NCBI GenBank assembly: GCA_030765235.1
Contig: JAVCCW010000010.1
Coordinates: 30,907 to 94,906 of the forward strand
Source of the DNA: Candidatus Gorgyraea atricola
GTDB lineage: Bacteria > Omnitrophota > Gorgyraeia > Gorgyraeales > Gorgyraeaceae
Length of the DNA: 64,000 nt
Reading direction: 5' to 3'
The translations under genes and the position numbers were made by a program. This document shows, in pieces, positions 8,571 to 55,325 of this stretch. Position 1 is the stretch's first letter, and each line of letters opens with the position of its first letter. The notes beneath the pieces were generated by a model. That model saw only the letters and a program-made list of their open reading frames with translations, was not told the DNA's origin and made no database searches.

Positions 8571-9644
8571 TTAAAATCCCCAGTTCAGGCTTGTATTAAA
8601 ACTAACGTCAGGGCTGGAGGCAGCGCTGATATTTTCAACAACCGCAAAATTCCACGACACGTCGGTCCTTTCCTTCCACCTATAATTAAAACCCAGGGCC
8701 CAGTCATGCGCGTCATTGTCCAGAGGATTTGTCTGGCTATATGAATAAGGCGTATTGTTGCCGGTCACCTGTGTGACAACAGAAAACCTCTCTGTAAAAA
8801 AATATTCCAGTGCCAGCATGTAAGAATAAAACTCCTGATCGATACCCAGCACTGAGAAAACATCGGGCTTTTCTATTCTCATGACACTGGCACCCGTGTA
8901 GACAAAAAGCCTGTCAAAGAATCTCTTATCTATTAAAATGCCAAAACCATAATCGAATTCGCCGCTCCCGATCAAATCATCCTCATCAGCTGTTGGAAAC
9001 TTGATCGCTGAGCGCACTGATATATTTGGAAAGAGCCAATGCCACTCGCTTTCCCTTAGCAGCTGATATTTAGCAGTTAGCACGACATCACCCAGGCCAT
9101 GCGTAGAAGTCTTTTGTTGTATGAGGTAGTTGCCGGGACCATACTTGAAACTGTAATCGAATTCGTACGACCCTTGACGCTCTCTTGAGCGAGGCGTCCT
9201 TGCTCCAATTCCATCCTCAAAGCCTTCTATAGCATTATCCAGATATCCACTGCACAGGCCTATATAAGGAACCTCTAATCCGATTTCCAGATTATCGTAA
9301 ACACCATACCTGAAATCAAGCGTGATCCTCTGGACCTCTAAGTCGATCTGGATGTCATAAAAAGATGAGATCGGCGTAAACGCGCTTACAGTGATGTTTG
9401 AAACAGTATAATCCGCATCTATTACAAATCTATTTCTCTCTACAACGCTTGCCTTGTCCGGCACCATCTGTAAATAGAAAAGATATAGCGGCATTTGATT
9501 TCGTATGGCTACCGGGCCGATCCCTGATACCTGATAAGATTCCTCATCTTCTTCTGGTTCATATAAATATGCAAAAGCACTGTCCAAAGACAAAAAACAA
9601 CTGACAAAAAACAACACCACGATAGCTGCCAAAAATACCTTCAT
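8571..9644 (-). CDS. Outer-membrane beta-barrel protein (start refined to MKVFLAAIVVLFF... signal peptide), C-terminal NWGF
   Basis: ORF track start at 9785 gives a non-signal N-extension; internal ATG at 9644 gives a classical signal peptide; C-terminal aromatic residue. Confidence 0.45.
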   Translation of the reverse strand: MKVFLAAIVVLFFVSCFLSLDSAFAYLYEPEEDEESYQVSGIGPVAIRNQMPLYLFYLQMVPDKASVVERNRFVIDADYTVSNITVSAFTPISSFYDIQIDLEVQRITLDFRYGVYDNLEIGLEVPYIGLCSGYLDNAIEGFEDGIGARTPRSRERQGSYEFDYSFKYGPGNYLIQQKTSTHGLGDVVLTAKYQLLRESEWHWLFPNISVRSAIKFPTADEDDLIGSGEFDYGFGILIDKRFFDRLFVYTGASVMRIEKPDVFSVLGIDQEFYSYMLALEYFFTERFSVVTQVTGNNTPYSYSQTNPLDNDAHDWALGFNYRWKERTDVSWNFAVVENISAASSPDVSFNTSLNWGF

Positions 9645-9702
9645 CCATAACCTCCGCGATCTTGAAAATGGTCTAATTATATGGTATACTTGTATTAGCC
9701 GA

Positions 9703-9790
9703 TAAGGGCAAACCCTAGAGAAATCAGGGGGCGCAAAGCCAACAGGCCTAAGTCCTTTAAACGGATATGGCGGCTGGGTTGCCAAGCGAT
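9703..9790 (+). ncRNA. Candidate c-di-GMP-I (GEMM) riboswitch aptamer, plus strand, no downstream plus-strand gene
   Basis: GGGCAAACC-cuagaGAAAucaggg-GGCGCAAAGCC followed by a hairpin carrying the canonical 11-nt GAAA tetraloop receptor halves CCUAAG ... UAUGG, then GGGUUGCC. This matches GEMM-I architecture (tetraloop hairpin, ACGCAAAGCC junction, receptor hairpin). Confidence 0.5.
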
Positions 9791-9802
9791 GAAAAGCCGA
9801 CG

Positions 9803-11311
9803 CTAATCGCCTTTATCGGCCTTTCTTATTGTCTTCCCCATGATTTCAGAAAACTCATCCTCCAGCACAAAAAAAGGAGCTACGTTGCACCCGGTAAAAC
9901 TCTTTACCTTATCTATTGCCTCAATATCCTTGGGATTTAACATAGCAAGGCTTACTACGTTCTTTTCCTTCTTAACTGGAATTACCCCATAATTCTTGAT
10001 CAAATCAATAGGTATCTTGCTTATAACTGCTTTTAATTCTCCATTCTGCTCTAATCTTCTTACATCAAAATGCGGGACATTCAACTGTGACTCCAGGGCC
10101 CTTGCTATGTCGCCTGAACTCGCCAAGCCAAGACCTACAATGCTCTGACCGATCTTCTGGCCTGTTGACCAATGTTTACTTAAAGCTGCCTCGAGCTGCT
10201 GAGAAGTCAAAACATGTGATTCAACCAGTATCTGGCCCAATGGCTTGTGCCTGAATTCAGGCACCACCTTAGAGGCCTTTTCAGAGACAATAGACTGATG
10301 CGAAGCTAAAAACTCTTTCTTCATCATGGTCCTGCGATTTACAAGAAAATTACTTCCAGGCAAGGCCTTCAGGTATCCCTTTATCTCAGCGATTATCTCC
10401 ATGAGCTCCACGATATTTTGAAATCCATAATCTTTATTATTAGCTATTGCCACAGAAAGGCTCATGAGCGGTGTATTTGTTATGTTGCCCCTTCTATCCT
10501 TTGAAATGATATGGCCCAGACCCCTGTCTTCTTTGGTGTAATGAAAAGGCATAAGCCTGTTAAAGCTCAATATGGACTCCGATGCTATTAATCTGTCGCG
10601 CTCAGGCGTGGTCACCACTACAAAATCATCGCCTCCAATATGCCCCACAAAGTCATCCTTGTTCCCGTATTTCTTAACTGTCCTTGAAACAATATGGGCA
10701 GTCTGGCGAATAACCGCATCGCCCTTCATGTAGTTATATTTGTCATTAAAGGATTTGAAGTTATCAATGTCGTAATACGCGACAGAAAAAATCGCGTCCT
10801 CTTCGATCTTTGACTGGATAACCTTTTCTATGCGTCTATTTCCAGGGAGCCTTGTGAGCGCGTTCGCGTGCAGCTGGTGCGTAGTCCTGCGCAGCGCCAT
10901 TTCCATCCTGACCTCCAGGTCAATAGGATCAGGTGGGTTCGCGATATAATCGTCCACGCCCTGCTCTATCTCGAGCATGCGCTTGCGTATCTGTTTTTTA
11001 TCAATGAGTATTATTACCGGTATGTGTGCGGTAAGAAAATCTTCTTTCAAGACCTTTGAGACCTCGAAACCGTCTATCTTCGGAATATTGCAGTCTATAA
11101 TAATAATATCAGGGTGCGCTCGCCGAACCAGCTCAAGCACAGATGCCCCATCTGAAGCAATAATAACTTCGTAATCCCAAGCATTTAAAAGATAAACAAG
11201 TATATCTACTATCTTTTGCTCATGCTCTGCTAACAATACCTTTTTATTCAGTCCGTTCATAAGATCATTATAACGTACAATATTTCCAAGGTCAACATTT
11301 ACCCCACCCAA
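9803..11311 (-). CDS. Response-regulator receiver + non-canonical GGDEF (GGDDF) + C-terminal MshEN/T2SSE_N (c-di-GMP-binding) domain protein
   Basis: 502 aa; REC with phospho-Asp context IIIIDCNIPKIDG; GGDEF-like domain with GHIGGDDFVV; C-terminus LEAALSKHWSTGQKIGQSIVGLGLASSGDIARALESQLNVPHFD resembles GspE/MshE N-terminal domain. Confidence 0.7.
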   Translation of the reverse strand: MGGVNVDLGNIVRYNDLMNGLNKKVLLAEHEQKIVDILVYLLNAWDYEVIIASDGASVLELVRRAHPDIIIIDCNIPKIDGFEVSKVLKEDFLTAHIPVIILIDKKQIRKRMLEIEQGVDDYIANPPDPIDLEVRMEMALRRTTHQLHANALTRLPGNRRIEKVIQSKIEEDAIFSVAYYDIDNFKSFNDKYNYMKGDAVIRQTAHIVSRTVKKYGNKDDFVGHIGGDDFVVVTTPERDRLIASESILSFNRLMPFHYTKEDRGLGHIISKDRRGNITNTPLMSLSVAIANNKDYGFQNIVELMEIIAEIKGYLKALPGSNFLVNRRTMMKKEFLASHQSIVSEKASKVVPEFRHKPLGQILVESHVLTSQQLEAALSKHWSTGQKIGQSIVGLGLASSGDIARALESQLNVPHFDVRRLEQNGELKAVISKIPIDLIKNYGVIPVKKEKNVVSLAMLNPKDIEAIDKVKSFTGCNVAPFFVLEDEFSEIMGKTIRKADKGD

Positions 11312-40490: not shown

Positions 40491-40526
40491 AAAAAAATGC
40501 CCCCACCGCAAAACGATGGGGGCAAA
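40491..40526 (-). terminator. Rho-independent terminator of cspA (GC hairpin gccccc-N13-gggggc followed by U7 on minus strand)
   Basis: Minus-strand RNA: GCCCCCAUCGUUUUGCGGUGGGGGC-AUUUUUUU directly after cspA stop; T-tract abuts the start codon of the next gene. Confidence 0.5.
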
Positions 40527-40541
40527 GGTAGCTATCTAAAA

Positions 40542-40745
40542 TTAAGCTAAAGGTTTTACGTTAGCTGCCTGTTCTCCCTTTGGTCCTTGGACAATATCAA
40601 ATTCTACATCCTGACCTTCTGCTAAGGTCTTATAGCCGTCACCCTGTATGGCTGTGTGATGCACGAATACATCCTTGCCATCTTCAGGAGTAATGAAGCC
40701 GTAGCCTTTTTTATTGTCAAACCACTTCACTTTCCCTTTTGACAC
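40542..40745 (-). CDS. cspA: Cold-shock protein (CspA family)
   Basis: 67 aa; [18 protein letters not shown] (RNP1) and VFVHHTAI (RNP2) motifs. Confidence 0.9.
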
Positions 40746-40842
40746 TCTACTACCCTCCTTCCGTACACCTTGTTATGATACATTCAAACAAGGCAAAAAT
40801 TAGATTCTAGAGAAGTTTACCACAAGGTGGCCATTTTGTCAA

Positions 40843-45118: not shown

Positions 45119-46776
45119 ATCCTCCTGGATCTTGGAAACCCCACACCCAACAATAATGCCAGATCAATATCTTCGCGGCTACCTACAATCCCCTCTTTTA
45201 AACACAATTCAGCCTGCCTTCTTATGGGGCATAAAAGTCGATTTGCTATGTCTTTTCGTCCGGATGACTGCTGCGTCTTTATTTTATCTCCAAGACCTTG
45301 CTCGAGTATCTCGCTGGCCTTATAGGCCACATCATGGCCGATCTCTTCTAAAAGGCGCAGGGGACCCACTGGCATACCAAAATCCAACATTGCATTCTCA
45401 ATATCCTCTGCATTAAAACCATTTTTCAACATAAAAAGGGCCTCATTTAGATATGGCAGGATCATGCGGTTTACAAGAAATCCGGGACTATCCTTGACCA
45501 CAAGGGGTATCTTTTTGAAGCTGCGCAAAAAGCCAATAGTTGAGCTCAGGACCTCTTTGCTCGTGAATCTCGTGGGAATAACCTCTACCAGCTTCATCTT
45601 ATACGCTGGATTAAAAAAATGCATGCCAATAAAACGCTCGGCATTCCTCAATGATCTTGACAATTCCTCAATAGAAATACACGAGGTATTTGTAGCTATT
45701 ATGCAATCCTTGCGTAACGACTTCTCTATCTGACTAAATAATATCTTTTTCTTTAGCGCATCTTCTATTATAGATTCTATCACTATATCAGTATCCTTGC
45801 ATACACCATTGCCAAATCTTATGTTTTTAATGCTTGGCCTCATGCCCCTGGAAATCGCATCTTTGCATATATTTTTTATATACGGTCTTGCCTTTTTTAA
45901 AACATTCTTATTGGCATCTGTTATATCGACTGGCAATTCTGTCTTTAAGCTTATTAGATAAGCAATATCCCTGCCCATTGTGCCGGCCCCTATAACTGAA
46001 CATCGCTTTAGGCGCGGGCTTAACAACTCAGGACCTTTATATTTATCAACCAACAAATATGAGGATAGCGCATTCTGTGCTGGCGGTTGAAAGATCTTAT
46101 CAATCACCTCTTGTCTCTCGACAGCCTCTACCTGTCCAACCGCGTAGGTTGGATTTAAATCCAACCTACGCGGTTGGACAGGTAGCCTTGCAAGCTTCTC
46201 ATAATCGCATTTTCTTGATTCTGGAATAATCTTGTCTATTATTCCCAGCTCTTTCGCCTCTTTTGCAAAAATCAACTCCCCTTTATCCATAAGAGAATCT
46301 GCTCTCTTTGATCCTATCTTTTCTTTTAATCTATGAGGACCGCCAAAACCAGGCGAGATGCCTAATTTTACCTCTGGGAGCCCGATCTTCACTCTCTTGT
46401 TTGTAGTAGCAAGTATATGGTCACAAGAGAGCGCCAGTTCCATGCCGCCACCGACACAAGCACCATCTACTATAGTAAAAGTCGGCATCTTTAAGTCAGC
46501 TATTTTGCTAAATAGCCTTTGCCCATTTTTACAAAAACTAACCACCTCTTTTTCTGTACGCATGGCAGCAAGCTCTTTAATATCTGCGCCCGCGATAAAG
46601 ACATTCTGCTTCTTGCTCGTGAAAAACAATGCGCGAAGTTCGACTTTATTACTTGTAACGCTATCTATGATACTCTCAAGCTGCTTGAAATTTTCTTTGG
46701 ATAACAGGTTTACCTCTGAATCAGGATCATTAAACTCTATAACACCCATATCATCTTTTTTGTAATAGGAGATCAT
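45106..46776 (-). CDS. FadB-like bifunctional enoyl-CoA hydratase / 3-hydroxyacyl-CoA dehydrogenase, with 18-aa in-frame palindrome-encoded insert in the interdomain linker
   Basis: 556 aa; crotonase fold N-terminus (FIAGADIKEL, GGGMELAL), 3HCDH NAD-binding VIGAGTMGRDIA; residues PVQPRRLDLNPTYAVGQV are the direct translation of the 46129-46184 palindrome. Confidence 0.75.
   Translation of the reverse strand: MISYYKKDDMGVIEFNDPDSEVNLLSKENFKQLESIIDSVTSNKVELRALFFTSKKQNVFIAGADIKELAAMRTEKEVVSFCKNGQRLFSKIADLKMPTFTIVDGACVGGGMELALSCDHILATTNKRVKIGLPEVKLGISPGFGGPHRLKEKIGSKRADSLMDKGELIFAKEAKELGIIDKIIPESRKCDYEKLARLPVQPRRLDLNPTYAVGQVEAVERQEVIDKIFQPPAQNALSSYLLVDKYKGPELLSPRLKRCSVIGAGTMGRDIAYLISLKTELPVDITDANKNVLKKARPYIKNICKDAISRGMRPSIKNIRFGNGVCKDTDIVIESIIEDALKKKILFSQIEKSLRKDCIIATNTSCISIEELSRSLRNAERFIGMHFFNPAYKMKLVEVIPTRFTSKEVLSSTIGFLRSFKKIPLVVKDSPGFLVNRMILPYLNEALFMLKNGFNAEDIENAMLDFGMPVGPLRLLEEIGHDVAYKASEILEQGLGDKIKTQQSSGRKDIANRLLCPIRRQAELCLKEGIVGSREDIDLALLLGVGFPRSRRIWEA
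46129..46184. repeat. 56-bp perfect palindromic (REP/MITE-like) element, copy 2, inside FadB-like CDS in frame
   Basis: tacctgtccaaccgcgtaggttggatttaaatccaacctacgcggttggacaggta; same family as 34172-34226 (shared core ccgcgtaggt-N-gatttaaatc-N-acctacgcgg). Confidence 0.7.
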
Positions 46777-48840: not shown

Positions 48841-49096
48841 AAGCTAAAAGGAGGCCTGTTCGCTCAGGGGAAAATTTCCCTCCTCGCCCCGCCCTTTCTA
48901 CGAAAGGGCGGGACTCGGAAACAGGTCGCCTTTCATTTTGCATTTTGGTGGGGCCGAAAAAACTTCACCCACACCATAGGTGTGGGTGTCGAACAGTTTT
49001 CGGCCTTTTTGTCTCATAGAATGTGACAAAATAAACCACCAAAATGCAAAATGAAAGACTAAATTTTCAATTCGCGAACAGGCCTCCTTTTAGCTT
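48841..49096 (+). mobile_element. MITE-like element, family copy 2 (perfect 23-bp TIR aagctaaaaggaggcctgttcgc)
   Basis: Same family as 36045-36312; perfect terminal inverted repeats; internal hairpins ccccgccctttc-uacg-gaaagggcgggg and cacccacaccataggtgtgggtg. Confidence 0.65.
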
Positions 49097-55164: not shown

Positions 55165-55325
55165 TGGAACGACAAAGGCAAACCACTTGAAAGAGTGGGA
55201 CGTCATGAACCACAGAAGGTTCATGATCCCGTACTTGAGCGAAGCGAATAGTACGGGGCAAAACCACGGGCCCTGAGCAAAGCCAACGAAGTTGGCTGCG
55301 TCGAAGGGTGGCCGGGTTACCGAAA
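55165..55325 (+). ncRNA. Candidate c-di-GMP-I (GEMM) riboswitch with enlarged internal insertions, 5' leader of rlpA-like gene
   Basis: AAAGGCAAACCACUUGAAAGAGUGGGACG matches 25/29 of the Vibrio cholerae Vc2 core; ...GAGCAAAGCC...GGGUUACCGA present; two inserted perfect hairpins (ucaugaacc/gguucauga; cccguac/guacggg); ends 5 nt before ATG 55330. Confidence 0.55.

Follow-up and report, generated by a model that had tools for sequence, protein, structure and literature searches.

A conserved c-di-GMP-I riboswitch aptamer without a downstream gene in Omnitrophota: a candidate stand-alone sensor RNA

Introduction

Riboswitch aptamers are nearly always described as mRNA leaders. Here we describe a cyclic di-GMP (c-di-GMP) aptamer that lies outside any such leader, in a 64,000-nucleotide stretch of the genome of Candidatus Gorgyraea atricola (Omnitrophota; GenBank assembly GCA_030765235.1, contig JAVCCW010000010.1, positions 30,907 to 94,906), hereafter the window. 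The aptamer is encoded on the plus strand between two genes that are both on the minus strand: a divergent gene for an outer-membrane-type protein of the DUF3187 family, and a convergent gene whose product combines REC, GGDEF-like and MshEN domains (hereafter REC-GGDDF-MshEN). An earlier model-made annotation of the window, prepared from its letters and open reading frames (ORFs) and called here the sequence-only reading, had noticed the aptamer and proposed that it could belong to an antisense RNA, a trans-acting small RNA sponge or a relic. We followed up this annotation with covariance-model searches, a comparison across related genomes and metagenome contigs, and RNA folding models.

Results

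A complete c-di-GMP-I aptamer opposite to both flanking genes

Scanning the whole window with Rfam covariance models returned a single c-di-GMP-I match at or above threshold, on the plus strand at 9697-9786 (68.8 bits, E = 2.2e-11, against a gathering score of 35 bits for RF01051), with an alignment that spans the full model (1-87/87); in the same scan, the minus strand at the aptamer gave no RF01051 match. The sequence-only reading had recognised GEMM-I hallmarks here, a GAAA tetraloop and both halves of its receptor, and had placed them at 9703-9790 on the plus strand, opposite to both flanking genes; the two-strand RF01051 search that it recommended bore out the features and the strand, and its coordinates to within a few bases. 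As in other members of the c-di-GMP-I class, P2 is capped by a GNRA tetraloop and P3 carries the receptor. With the pocket numbering carried over by alignment to the Rfam consensus, the ligand-contacting nucleotides G20, A47 and C92 of the Vc2 riboswitch (PMC5888326) would correspond to G9707 (9706 is also G), A9735 and C9782, and this predicted combination of G, A and C is of the c-di-GMP type, not the cyclic GMP-AMP (cGAMP) type. Across the 34 distinct units compared below, all 612 cells of P2 and proximal P3 are paired (100%), both sides of a pair have changed in 13 cells, and G-C to A-U double changes occur in 11 sequences; the aptamer helices thus show compensatory change. On these sequence grounds, 9697-9786 is a genuine c-di-GMP riboswitch aptamer and a bona fide member of a known family.

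The convergent protein bears its GGDEF signature as GGDDF, as the sequence-only reading had it and the translation confirmed, with the Pfam GGDEF model matched over the first half only; by its domain content, the gene encodes a c-di-GMP receptor. Its first ATG is at 11260, and its stop codon (9803-9805) lies exactly 17 nt past the aptamer in the window and in 11 genome loci. The aptamer does not occupy the same-strand 5' leader position of a classical cis-riboswitch; it lies at the 3' end of a potential target and points towards it, which is the position of antisense-acting riboswitches.

No conserved plus-strand ORF was found downstream of the aptamer across the compared units, in agreement with its earlier description as an orphan. 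The nearest plus-strand ORF (9767-9940, 57 codons) takes its AUG from the tetraloop receptor, lacks a ribosome-binding site and lies antisense to a conserved protein gene; this AUG is lost in three loci (L003, L010 and L013, where L-numbers denote loci and contigs) and its length ranges from 8 to 200 codons among units. This inconsistency in start and length argues that no protein-coding gene is under aptamer control. The same unconserved ORF was also the sole candidate for the missed small plus-strand gene in relatives that the earlier annotation had allowed for.

The whole RNA unit is conserved across Omnitrophota

A protein search with REC-GGDDF-MshEN returned 17 species-level genomes, all of them Candidatus Omnitrophota (some labelled 'uncultured Planctomycetia'). 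RF01051 matched in 14 of 15 orthologous loci (52.8-70.6 bits; 64-77% protein identity), in every case about 20 nt past the 3' end of the REC-GGDDF-MshEN gene and on the opposite strand. A metagenome scan with an invariant 21-nt core string yielded 32 more contigs, and the same RNA was found in the opposite-strand position in about 24 further metagenome contigs. The comparative set drawn from the 14 Omnitrophota species genomes and the metagenome contigs comprises 34 distinct units (unit alignment A1). Wherever both flanks were present, tblastn recovered the same gene order, with DUF3187 reading away from the RNA and REC-GGDDF-MshEN reading towards it. Among 31 non-redundant main-class units, the RNA is 95.5% identical in its 5' part and 88.0% identical in its 3' part, as compared to 57-65% for adjacent coding DNA. 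The arrangement is thus conserved in related genomes, and the suggestion that the element might be a relic is contradicted by the maintenance of promoter, RNA and 3' end in 34 units.

One Omnitrophota species (locus L004) lacks the RNA and keeps both flanking genes, which stand about 60 nt apart on one strand in an operon-like arrangement (L004:2040-2200). This suggests either that the RNA unit sits in an ancestral operon spacer or that it was lost from L004.

The units vary in size and surroundings. The window, L001, L002 and L005 have a short P3 and an aptamer of 88-92 nt; most species carry a conserved ~50-nt P3 extension, GACAAGCCGUAACC...GGUUAGUGAGGCAGUC (A1 columns 57-165; e.g. L009:7564-7700). 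In L018, an unrelated insertion of ~90 nt lowers the Rfam score to 36 bits, and L036, of the same class, finds its best match in c-di-GMP-I-GGC (59.3 against a gathering score of 59). Unrelated hairpin-forming inserts of 40-90 nt separate the U-tract of the RNA from the convergent stop codon in L009, L014, L041 and L044; these inserts, which also occur downstream in L036, look like small repeat elements and leave the RNA unit untouched. In L045 (1166-1552), the convergent gene apparently lacks the second half of its MshEN domain (about 85 C-terminal residues), and the RNA unit and the few overlapping codons are intact despite this shortening.

A predicted promoter and 3' end delimit the RNA

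A promoter-like site ends at 9690, 6 nt ahead of the aptamer match (Table 1). In the window this site has 10/12 hexamer matches plus the TG motif, which alone is not above chance in 1 kb; among the units, the pattern TTGAnn-16/17-TAnnnT ends 5-7 nt ahead of the RNA in 33/33, with the extended -10 TG in 31/33. The hexamers are conserved and the spacers are not, within a promoter region that is 59% identical overall. Transcription is predicted to start at about 9697.

At the other end, every main-class unit continues CGAUGAAAAGCCGA...GCCUUUAUCGGC and then a U-rich run, which is present in all of them, including those in which the tract is non-coding. Either a closing helix with a U-tract or a separate terminator is found in all units. 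The predicted 3' end lies at about 9830, for a product of ~134 nt in the window; with an extended P3, the product of relatives would reach as much as about 225 nt. An RNA of the predicted ~134 nt overlaps the convergent gene only in the stop codon and the last ~9 codons. The sequence-only reading had expected transcription to run antisense into the part of the gene that encodes the MshEN domain; the conserved helix and U-tract (9809-9830) within 35 nt of the aptamer speak against such a run. A generic terminator scan of 9300-10300 found nothing, its rules requiring a loop of 3-8 nt that neither helix here fits. With its own promoter, a defined 3' end and no downstream ORF, the unit has, as far as sequence tells, the make-up of a stand-alone small RNA gene.

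The stretch 9645-9696, which holds the promoter, also borders the DUF3187 gene: the -35 hexamer of the RNA is only 18 nt from the start codon of this signal-peptide-bearing protein (9644) and 7 nt from its ribosome-binding site (9651-9655). Scanning 9300-10300 revealed no sigma-70-type minus-strand promoter for DUF3187; by eye, a lone -10-like TATAAT without a -35 lies on the minus strand at 9681-9676, inside the spacer of the RNA promoter.

A closing helix competes with the aptamer core

In the fold of 9697-9850, the first nucleotides of the transcript (9698-9709, strand a) pair with 9809-9820 (strand a') to form a helix of 12-13 bp that ends immediately before the U-tract CUUUCUUAUU. A number of observations support this helix: firstly, an uninterrupted helix of 12 bp or more that begins within the first 14 nt arose in only 9/5000 dinucleotide shuffles; secondly, the helix is present in the minimum free energy (MFE) fold of all 34 distinct units and pairs in 96.8% of cells of A1, with slid registers pairing in at most 56%; thirdly, its covariation score was reached by 0/500 shuffles, with double changes at the outermost pair (A-U to U-A) and the innermost pair (C-G to U-A). 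The helix pairs better on the plus-strand RNA than on the minus-strand RNA owing to 32 G.U pairs, which argues for a plus-strand RNA helix rather than a DNA repeat. In the window and 11 genome loci, strand a' falls within the final codons of the convergent gene, and its nucleotides are unchanged where they are read in another frame (L010) or are non-coding (L014, L009). Four contigs with GCCCUUCAUCGGC keep the pairing as 6+6 bp around one bulged C. The terminal inverted repeat of a mobile element was rejected as an explanation: the conserved promoter lies outside the repeat, the helix depends on G.U pairs, which would be mismatches both in DNA and on the other strand, and each locus has a single copy.

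The outer 8 nt of strand a can act as the 5' strand of P1, and its inner GGGC consists of aptamer-core nucleotides. When the aptamer helices are enforced, the outer 7-9 bp of the closing helix persist in nearly every unit and adjoin the pocket; in these models, the outer helix would be a displaced P1 whose 3' strand is set off by an insert of 22-50 nt (22 nt in the window). In the unconstrained fold the helix is 4 bp longer (GGGC/GCCU), and takes up the G20 equivalent and the base of P2. Because these inner 4 bp use aptamer-core nucleotides, the closing helix would compete with ligand binding. At position 13, a change from C to U is accompanied by a change from G to A in the a' partner, with the aptamer partner still G (wobble), a pattern in which both alternative pairings appear to be maintained. 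The models suggest that the RNA would toggle, in response to ligand, between two forms: a closed rod, and a folded aptamer whose P1 is shorter. In essentially all units, a helix stands ahead of the U-tract in the free fold and in the aptamer-enforced fold alike, and the folding models revealed no terminator/antiterminator alternative of the kind needed by an antisense-acting riboswitch.

The insert and a probable terminator of the convergent gene

The insert between the aptamer and a' holds two partial copies of strand a, termed b1 and b2, and the alternative partners of a' are accordingly a, b1 and b2. On the plus-strand RNA, all main-class cells (100%, with 25 G.U) keep b1 paired to the UUUAUCG of a', as compared to 88.5% on the minus-strand RNA, and one b1-a' pair occurs as G.U, A-U and G-C among units. 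By contrast, b2 pairs with UCGGCUUUU better on the minus-strand RNA (97.1%, 17 G.U) than on the plus-strand RNA (92.8%), and shows no covariation. The corresponding minus-strand hairpin would terminate the convergent mRNA with the same a' DNA that the RNA uses for its own terminator; it is weak, with a stem of 5 G-C-rich bp, a 15-nt loop and only four U. The strand bias in pairing suggests that b2/a' is mainly a terminator of the convergent mRNA.

Other structures in this region were considered and set aside. A b2-a' hairpin (AAAAGCCGA/UCGGCUUUU) as plus-strand terminator was rejected for its minus-biased pairing and lack of covariation, and it never appeared in plus-strand MFE or aptamer-enforced folds. 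A local hairpin in the insert of the window fold (GCGAU/AUCGC) depends on a variable last codon and is missing from most units. The tetraloop and P2 3' strand (9720-9731) form a 12-nt inverted repeat, 92% complementary, with 9836-9847 past the U-tract; the window and L018 have this repeat but it is not kept in other species, and it is probably due to chance. As a read-through anti-aptamer this repeat was rejected, its distal arm being coding and not conserved beyond the closest relatives.

Outgroup relatives share the RNA and not its setting

Three further lineages (L019/L025, L029 and L035), with RF01051 at 60-69 bits, serve as outgroups; they share the promoter, aptamer and closing helix, and differ in insert and genomic context. 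Upstream of the outgroup RNAs, on the same strand, is a gene for a small peptidoglycan-binding lipoprotein; a gene for a GH1 glycosidase or a cNMP-binding protein begins 35 to about 340 nt downstream. A separate terminator hairpin stands 5-25 nt past the closing helix, and L029 has a' with U6 plus a second strong terminator. The outgroup hairpin forms with the 5' strand either free or engaged, and regulated terminators in these RNAs were rejected since the hairpins form in both constraint sets. Because the outgroups have no convergent gene, the constant of the family is a short RNA with ends set by the closing helix, not the antisense arrangement.

Other elements in the window

The sequence-only reading had called the aptamer at 9697-9786 the second of its kind. 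Another GEMM-like site does exist in the window, at 55168-55325 on the plus strand; it has large insertions and falls below threshold, its best match, to c-di-GMP-I-GGC, scoring 34.7 bits where the gathering score is 59. The site immediately precedes an ORF that begins at 55321 and whose N-terminus resembles a signal peptide (MKKLIIIALTLSLLS...), and it is probably a conventional cis-riboswitch variant that standard models under-score. As it has no a/a' strands and precedes an ORF, it was rejected as a paralogue of the RNA at 9697-9830. On the minus strand, 40494-40784 resembles a cspA thermoregulator leader (61.1 bits against a gathering score of 78) with a strong terminator-like hairpin at its end, and is probably the 5' untranslated region of a cold-shock gene. 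Near-perfect long hairpins or palindromes at 46128-46185 and 48917-49069 gave spurious microRNA-family matches, in the latter case on both strands.

Table 1. Coordinates of the RNA unit and its flanking genes in the window
Feature	Positions	Strand	Basis or remark
DUF3187 outer-membrane-type protein with signal peptide, divergent neighbour	8571..9644	-	Pfam PF11383, 86.9 bits; synteny kept
Predicted RNA promoter: -35 TTGAAA 9662-9667, 17-nt spacer, extended -10 TGgTATACT 9682-9690	9662..9690	+	promoter scan and conservation
c-di-GMP-I (GEMM-I) aptamer	9697..9786	+	RF01051, 68.8 bits against gathering score 35
Strand a, 5' strand of closing helix, GCCGAUAAGGGC	9698..9709	+	inverted repeat I1, MFE folds, pair counts
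Aptamer segment GGGCAAACC	9706-9714	+	sequence reading
P2 of aptamer	9708-9734	+	capped by GAAA tetraloop
GAAA tetraloop	9720-9723	+	sequence reading and model alignment
Aptamer segment GCGCAAAGCC	9731-9740	+	sequence reading
P3 of aptamer	9737-9780	+	carries 11-nt receptor
11-nt receptor halves	CCUAAG 9747-9752, UAUGG 9766-9770	+	sequence reading and model alignment
Aptamer segment GGGUUGCC	9776-9783	+	sequence reading
Insert between aptamer 3' end and P1 3' strand	9787..9808	+	holds b1, b2 and convergent stop codon 9803-9805
b1, CGAUGAA, partial copy of strand a	9787-9793	+	can pair with a'
b2, AAAAGCCGA, partial copy of strand a	9792-9800	+	can pair with a'
Candidate terminator hairpin of convergent mRNA, AAAGGCCGA...UCGGCUUUU	9792..9824	-	minus-strand fold; better minus-strand pairing
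REC + GGDEF-like + MshEN gene, convergent	9803..11311	-	Pfam, translation, NCBIfam
Strand a', 3' strand of closing helix, GCCUUUAUCGGC	9809..9820	+	pair counts, inverted repeat; within last codons of convergent gene
U-rich tract CUUUCUUAUU, right after closing helix	9821..9830	+	U-rich run kept in main-class units

Discussion

A candidate stand-alone sensor RNA

The aptamer, the conservation of the whole unit, a closing helix that competes with the aptamer core and the lack of a downstream ORF are the observations on which we infer a function for this RNA, from transcription start and termination site through ligand binding to biological role. With moderate confidence, we favour a stand-alone, constitutively terminated, c-di-GMP-sensing small RNA gene with a role like that of merRNA, the massively expressed riboswitch RNA of Bdellovibrio bacteriovorus. 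Among the options raised by the sequence-only reading, a trans-acting small RNA or sponge fits this best, the relic having been rejected. In the model that we propose, a sigma-70-type extended -10 promoter (9662-9690) would start the transcript at about 9697; its first 12 nt would pair with 9809-9820, and the U-tract would then end the RNA at about 9830, so that its two ends would both be paired. As P1, the aptamer would use the outer 8-9 bp, the 3' strand being displaced by the 22-nt insert. Free of ligand, the RNA would be a fully closed rod with its pocket destroyed; bound to ligand, it would be a folded aptamer with a shorter P1. The output would be the RNA itself, acting as a c-di-GMP sensor or buffer, and the competing helix would make binding tunable and reversible. 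The convergent overlap with the REC-GGDDF-MshEN gene would represent a shared, compact two-way terminator, and any effect on the REC-GGDDF-MshEN operon would be secondary, via ~28-40 nt of 3'-end complementarity.

A number of points weigh against this proposal. The start site, 3' end and abundance of the RNA are all predicted, and the RNA is, judging from L004, dispensable for the operon. The RNA is almost invariably linked to one operon (about 35 loci), which could point to a function in cis instead of inherited gene order. A pure buffer model assigns no role to the highly conserved insert (CGAUGAAAAGCCGA) or to the b1-a' pairing, maintained at 100%. Variation in the closing helix is low, and just 3 outgroup sequences supply its compensatory changes; a long-range helix that closes a 100-nt domain is not known to act as an intrinsic terminator. 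In L025, the GH1 gene starts about 35 nt past the terminator of the outgroup RNA, and a classical leader role for that RNA is possible.

The RNA shares with the Vc2-type c-di-GMP-I riboswitch (RF01051, Vibrio cholerae Vc2) the GNRA-capped P2, the 11-nt receptor in P3, the G/A/C pocket and covarying helices. It differs from RF01051 riboswitches in its position outside a 5' leader and without a downstream ORF; in a P1 whose 3' strand stands 22-50 nt off the aptamer and which extends 4 bp into the core; in a closing helix that itself holds the terminator position, with the U-tract directly after it; and in the ~50-nt P3 extension of most members of the clade. This platform, in which a displaced P1 closes the transcript, borders on the U-tract and intrudes into the pocket, is previously undescribed.

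In Bdellovibrio, merRNA is a noncoding RNA of 445 nt that contains a c-di-GMP aptamer, has no conserved downstream ORF and is expressed to an extreme level; it is proposed to bind or store c-di-GMP rather than to control genes, and was reported as not conserved outside Bdellovibrio (PMC3627812). The likeness to the Omnitrophota RNA lies in an aptamer-bearing RNA without a downstream ORF. Unlike merRNA, the Omnitrophota RNA is predicted to be only ~134-225 nt long, is kept in many species and closes with a defined helix. The host of merRNA is a predatory bacterium, and most Omnitrophota are proposed to be predators or parasites, in a paper that mentions neither c-di-GMP nor riboswitches (PMC10066038).

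Alternative readings

An antisense-acting riboswitch is a possible, if unlikely, alternative: c-di-GMP would decide between a stop at about 9830 and antisense read-through across the REC-GGDDF-MshEN gene, which would then be repressed, either because polymerases collide or because RNase III cleaves the duplex. In one possible logic, the ligand-free RNA would nucleate the 12-13 bp helix early via GGGC/GCCU and terminate efficiently, and ligand would leave a weaker, A/U-rich helix of 7-8 bp (the shortened P1 or b1-a') and more read-through. In about 35 loci, the RNA stands at the 3' end of a signalling gene and points towards it; known antisense-acting riboswitches, such as the S-adenosylmethionine (SAM) riboswitch behind ubiG-mccBA in Clostridium acetobutylicum and the B12 riboswitch of AspocR opposite pocR in Listeria, likewise lie at the 3' end of a signalling or regulatory gene and are transcribed towards it. 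The c-di-GMP family is, moreover, the most enriched in predicted antisense positions, with 152 predicted antisense c-di-GMP riboswitches against 2,554 (Serrano-Gutierrez & Merino 2023, PMC9943018). Strand a' has two conserved plus-strand-specific partners (a and b1), implying a switch at the terminator, and a feedback loop is plausible with a c-di-GMP receptor gene as target. In the validated cases, however, a ligand-controlled terminator switches a long antisense transcript, whereas in the Omnitrophota RNA a helix abuts the U-tract in both modelled states, with no clear terminator/antiterminator pair. The outgroup relatives are not convergent with any gene and their terminators are apparently constitutive, the extra hairpins between RNA end and gene in L009, L014, L041 and L044 loosen the coupling, and L004 does without the RNA.

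Aptamers of this class with an RNA product, or with nothing annotated, downstream are also known from Clostridioides difficile, in which c-di-GMP-I riboswitches precede the antisense RNAs RCd11 and RCd12 and an orphan lies between CD2517 and CD2517.1 (PMC11477304). In C. difficile the aptamer precedes a separate antitoxin RNA, whereas in Omnitrophota the aptamer and closing helix make up nearly the whole transcript. An orphan or antisense-positioned role for the aptamer is thus uncommon but not unprecedented.

It is improbable, in our estimate, that the RNA is instead a constitutive cis-antisense RNA or insulator, inverted in the spacer of an ancestral operon running from REC-GGDDF-MshEN to DUF3187. 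Such an RNA would pair with the 3' end of the upstream mRNA and with any DUF3187 read-through transcript, which would contain a perfect complement of the whole RNA; its strong promoter would fire against incoming polymerases, and c-di-GMP would set DUF3187 levels by modulating duplex availability. The operon-like adjacency of the two genes in L004, about 60 nt apart without the RNA, is consistent with this idea, as are the weak minus-strand terminator and the start of DUF3187 only 10-45 nt from the -35 of the RNA in most loci; with no sigma-70-like minus-strand promoter found in 9300-10300, DUF3187 may depend on read-through. However, the outgroup relatives have no such arrangement, the RNA (start 9697) is clear of the DUF3187 ribosome-binding site, and the A/T-rich spacer with its minus-strand TATAAT could be an independent DUF3187 promoter.

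A classical cis-riboswitch with a missed downstream gene, or the decaying relic of one, is scarcely credible: the presence of the aptamer and of the 57-codon ORF is all that speaks for it, and the comparative data refute it, with an ORF of unconserved start and length, without a ribosome-binding site and antisense through a conserved gene, set against RNA identity of 88-96%, a conserved promoter and maintained helices.

The stand-alone, antisense and insulator readings are not mutually exclusive. In a further reading that we think rather unlikely, P1 would be the stem of an intrinsic terminator, and c-di-GMP, by shortening it from 13 to about 8 bp, would tune termination and/or expose a 3' segment to the operon mRNAs, making the RNA a ligand-gated antisense small RNA that feeds back on a receptor gene and an outer-membrane protein. 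If true, a ligand-shortened P1 terminator would be an expression platform of a new kind, in nanobacteria with a predatory or parasitic way of life.

Implications

At this locus, one DNA stretch would serve as two non-identical convergent terminators and as the C-terminus of a protein. The RNA also provides a well-conserved case for probing the large predicted class of 'antisense-acting' c-di-GMP riboswitches. Among c-di-GMP aptamers, merRNA is the single well-known exception to the leader role, and its reported confinement to Bdellovibrio had barred comparative study of its architecture; an unrelated, uncultivated phylum now offers dozens of variants, in which design rules can be seen: a promoter right next to the aptamer, a P1 that is displaced, closes the transcript and takes the terminator position, and 4 additional bp in competition with the ligand pocket. 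These variants give testable constructs for telling whether the Omnitrophota RNA acts as a c-di-GMP buffer, a sensor or a ligand-gated antisense RNA.

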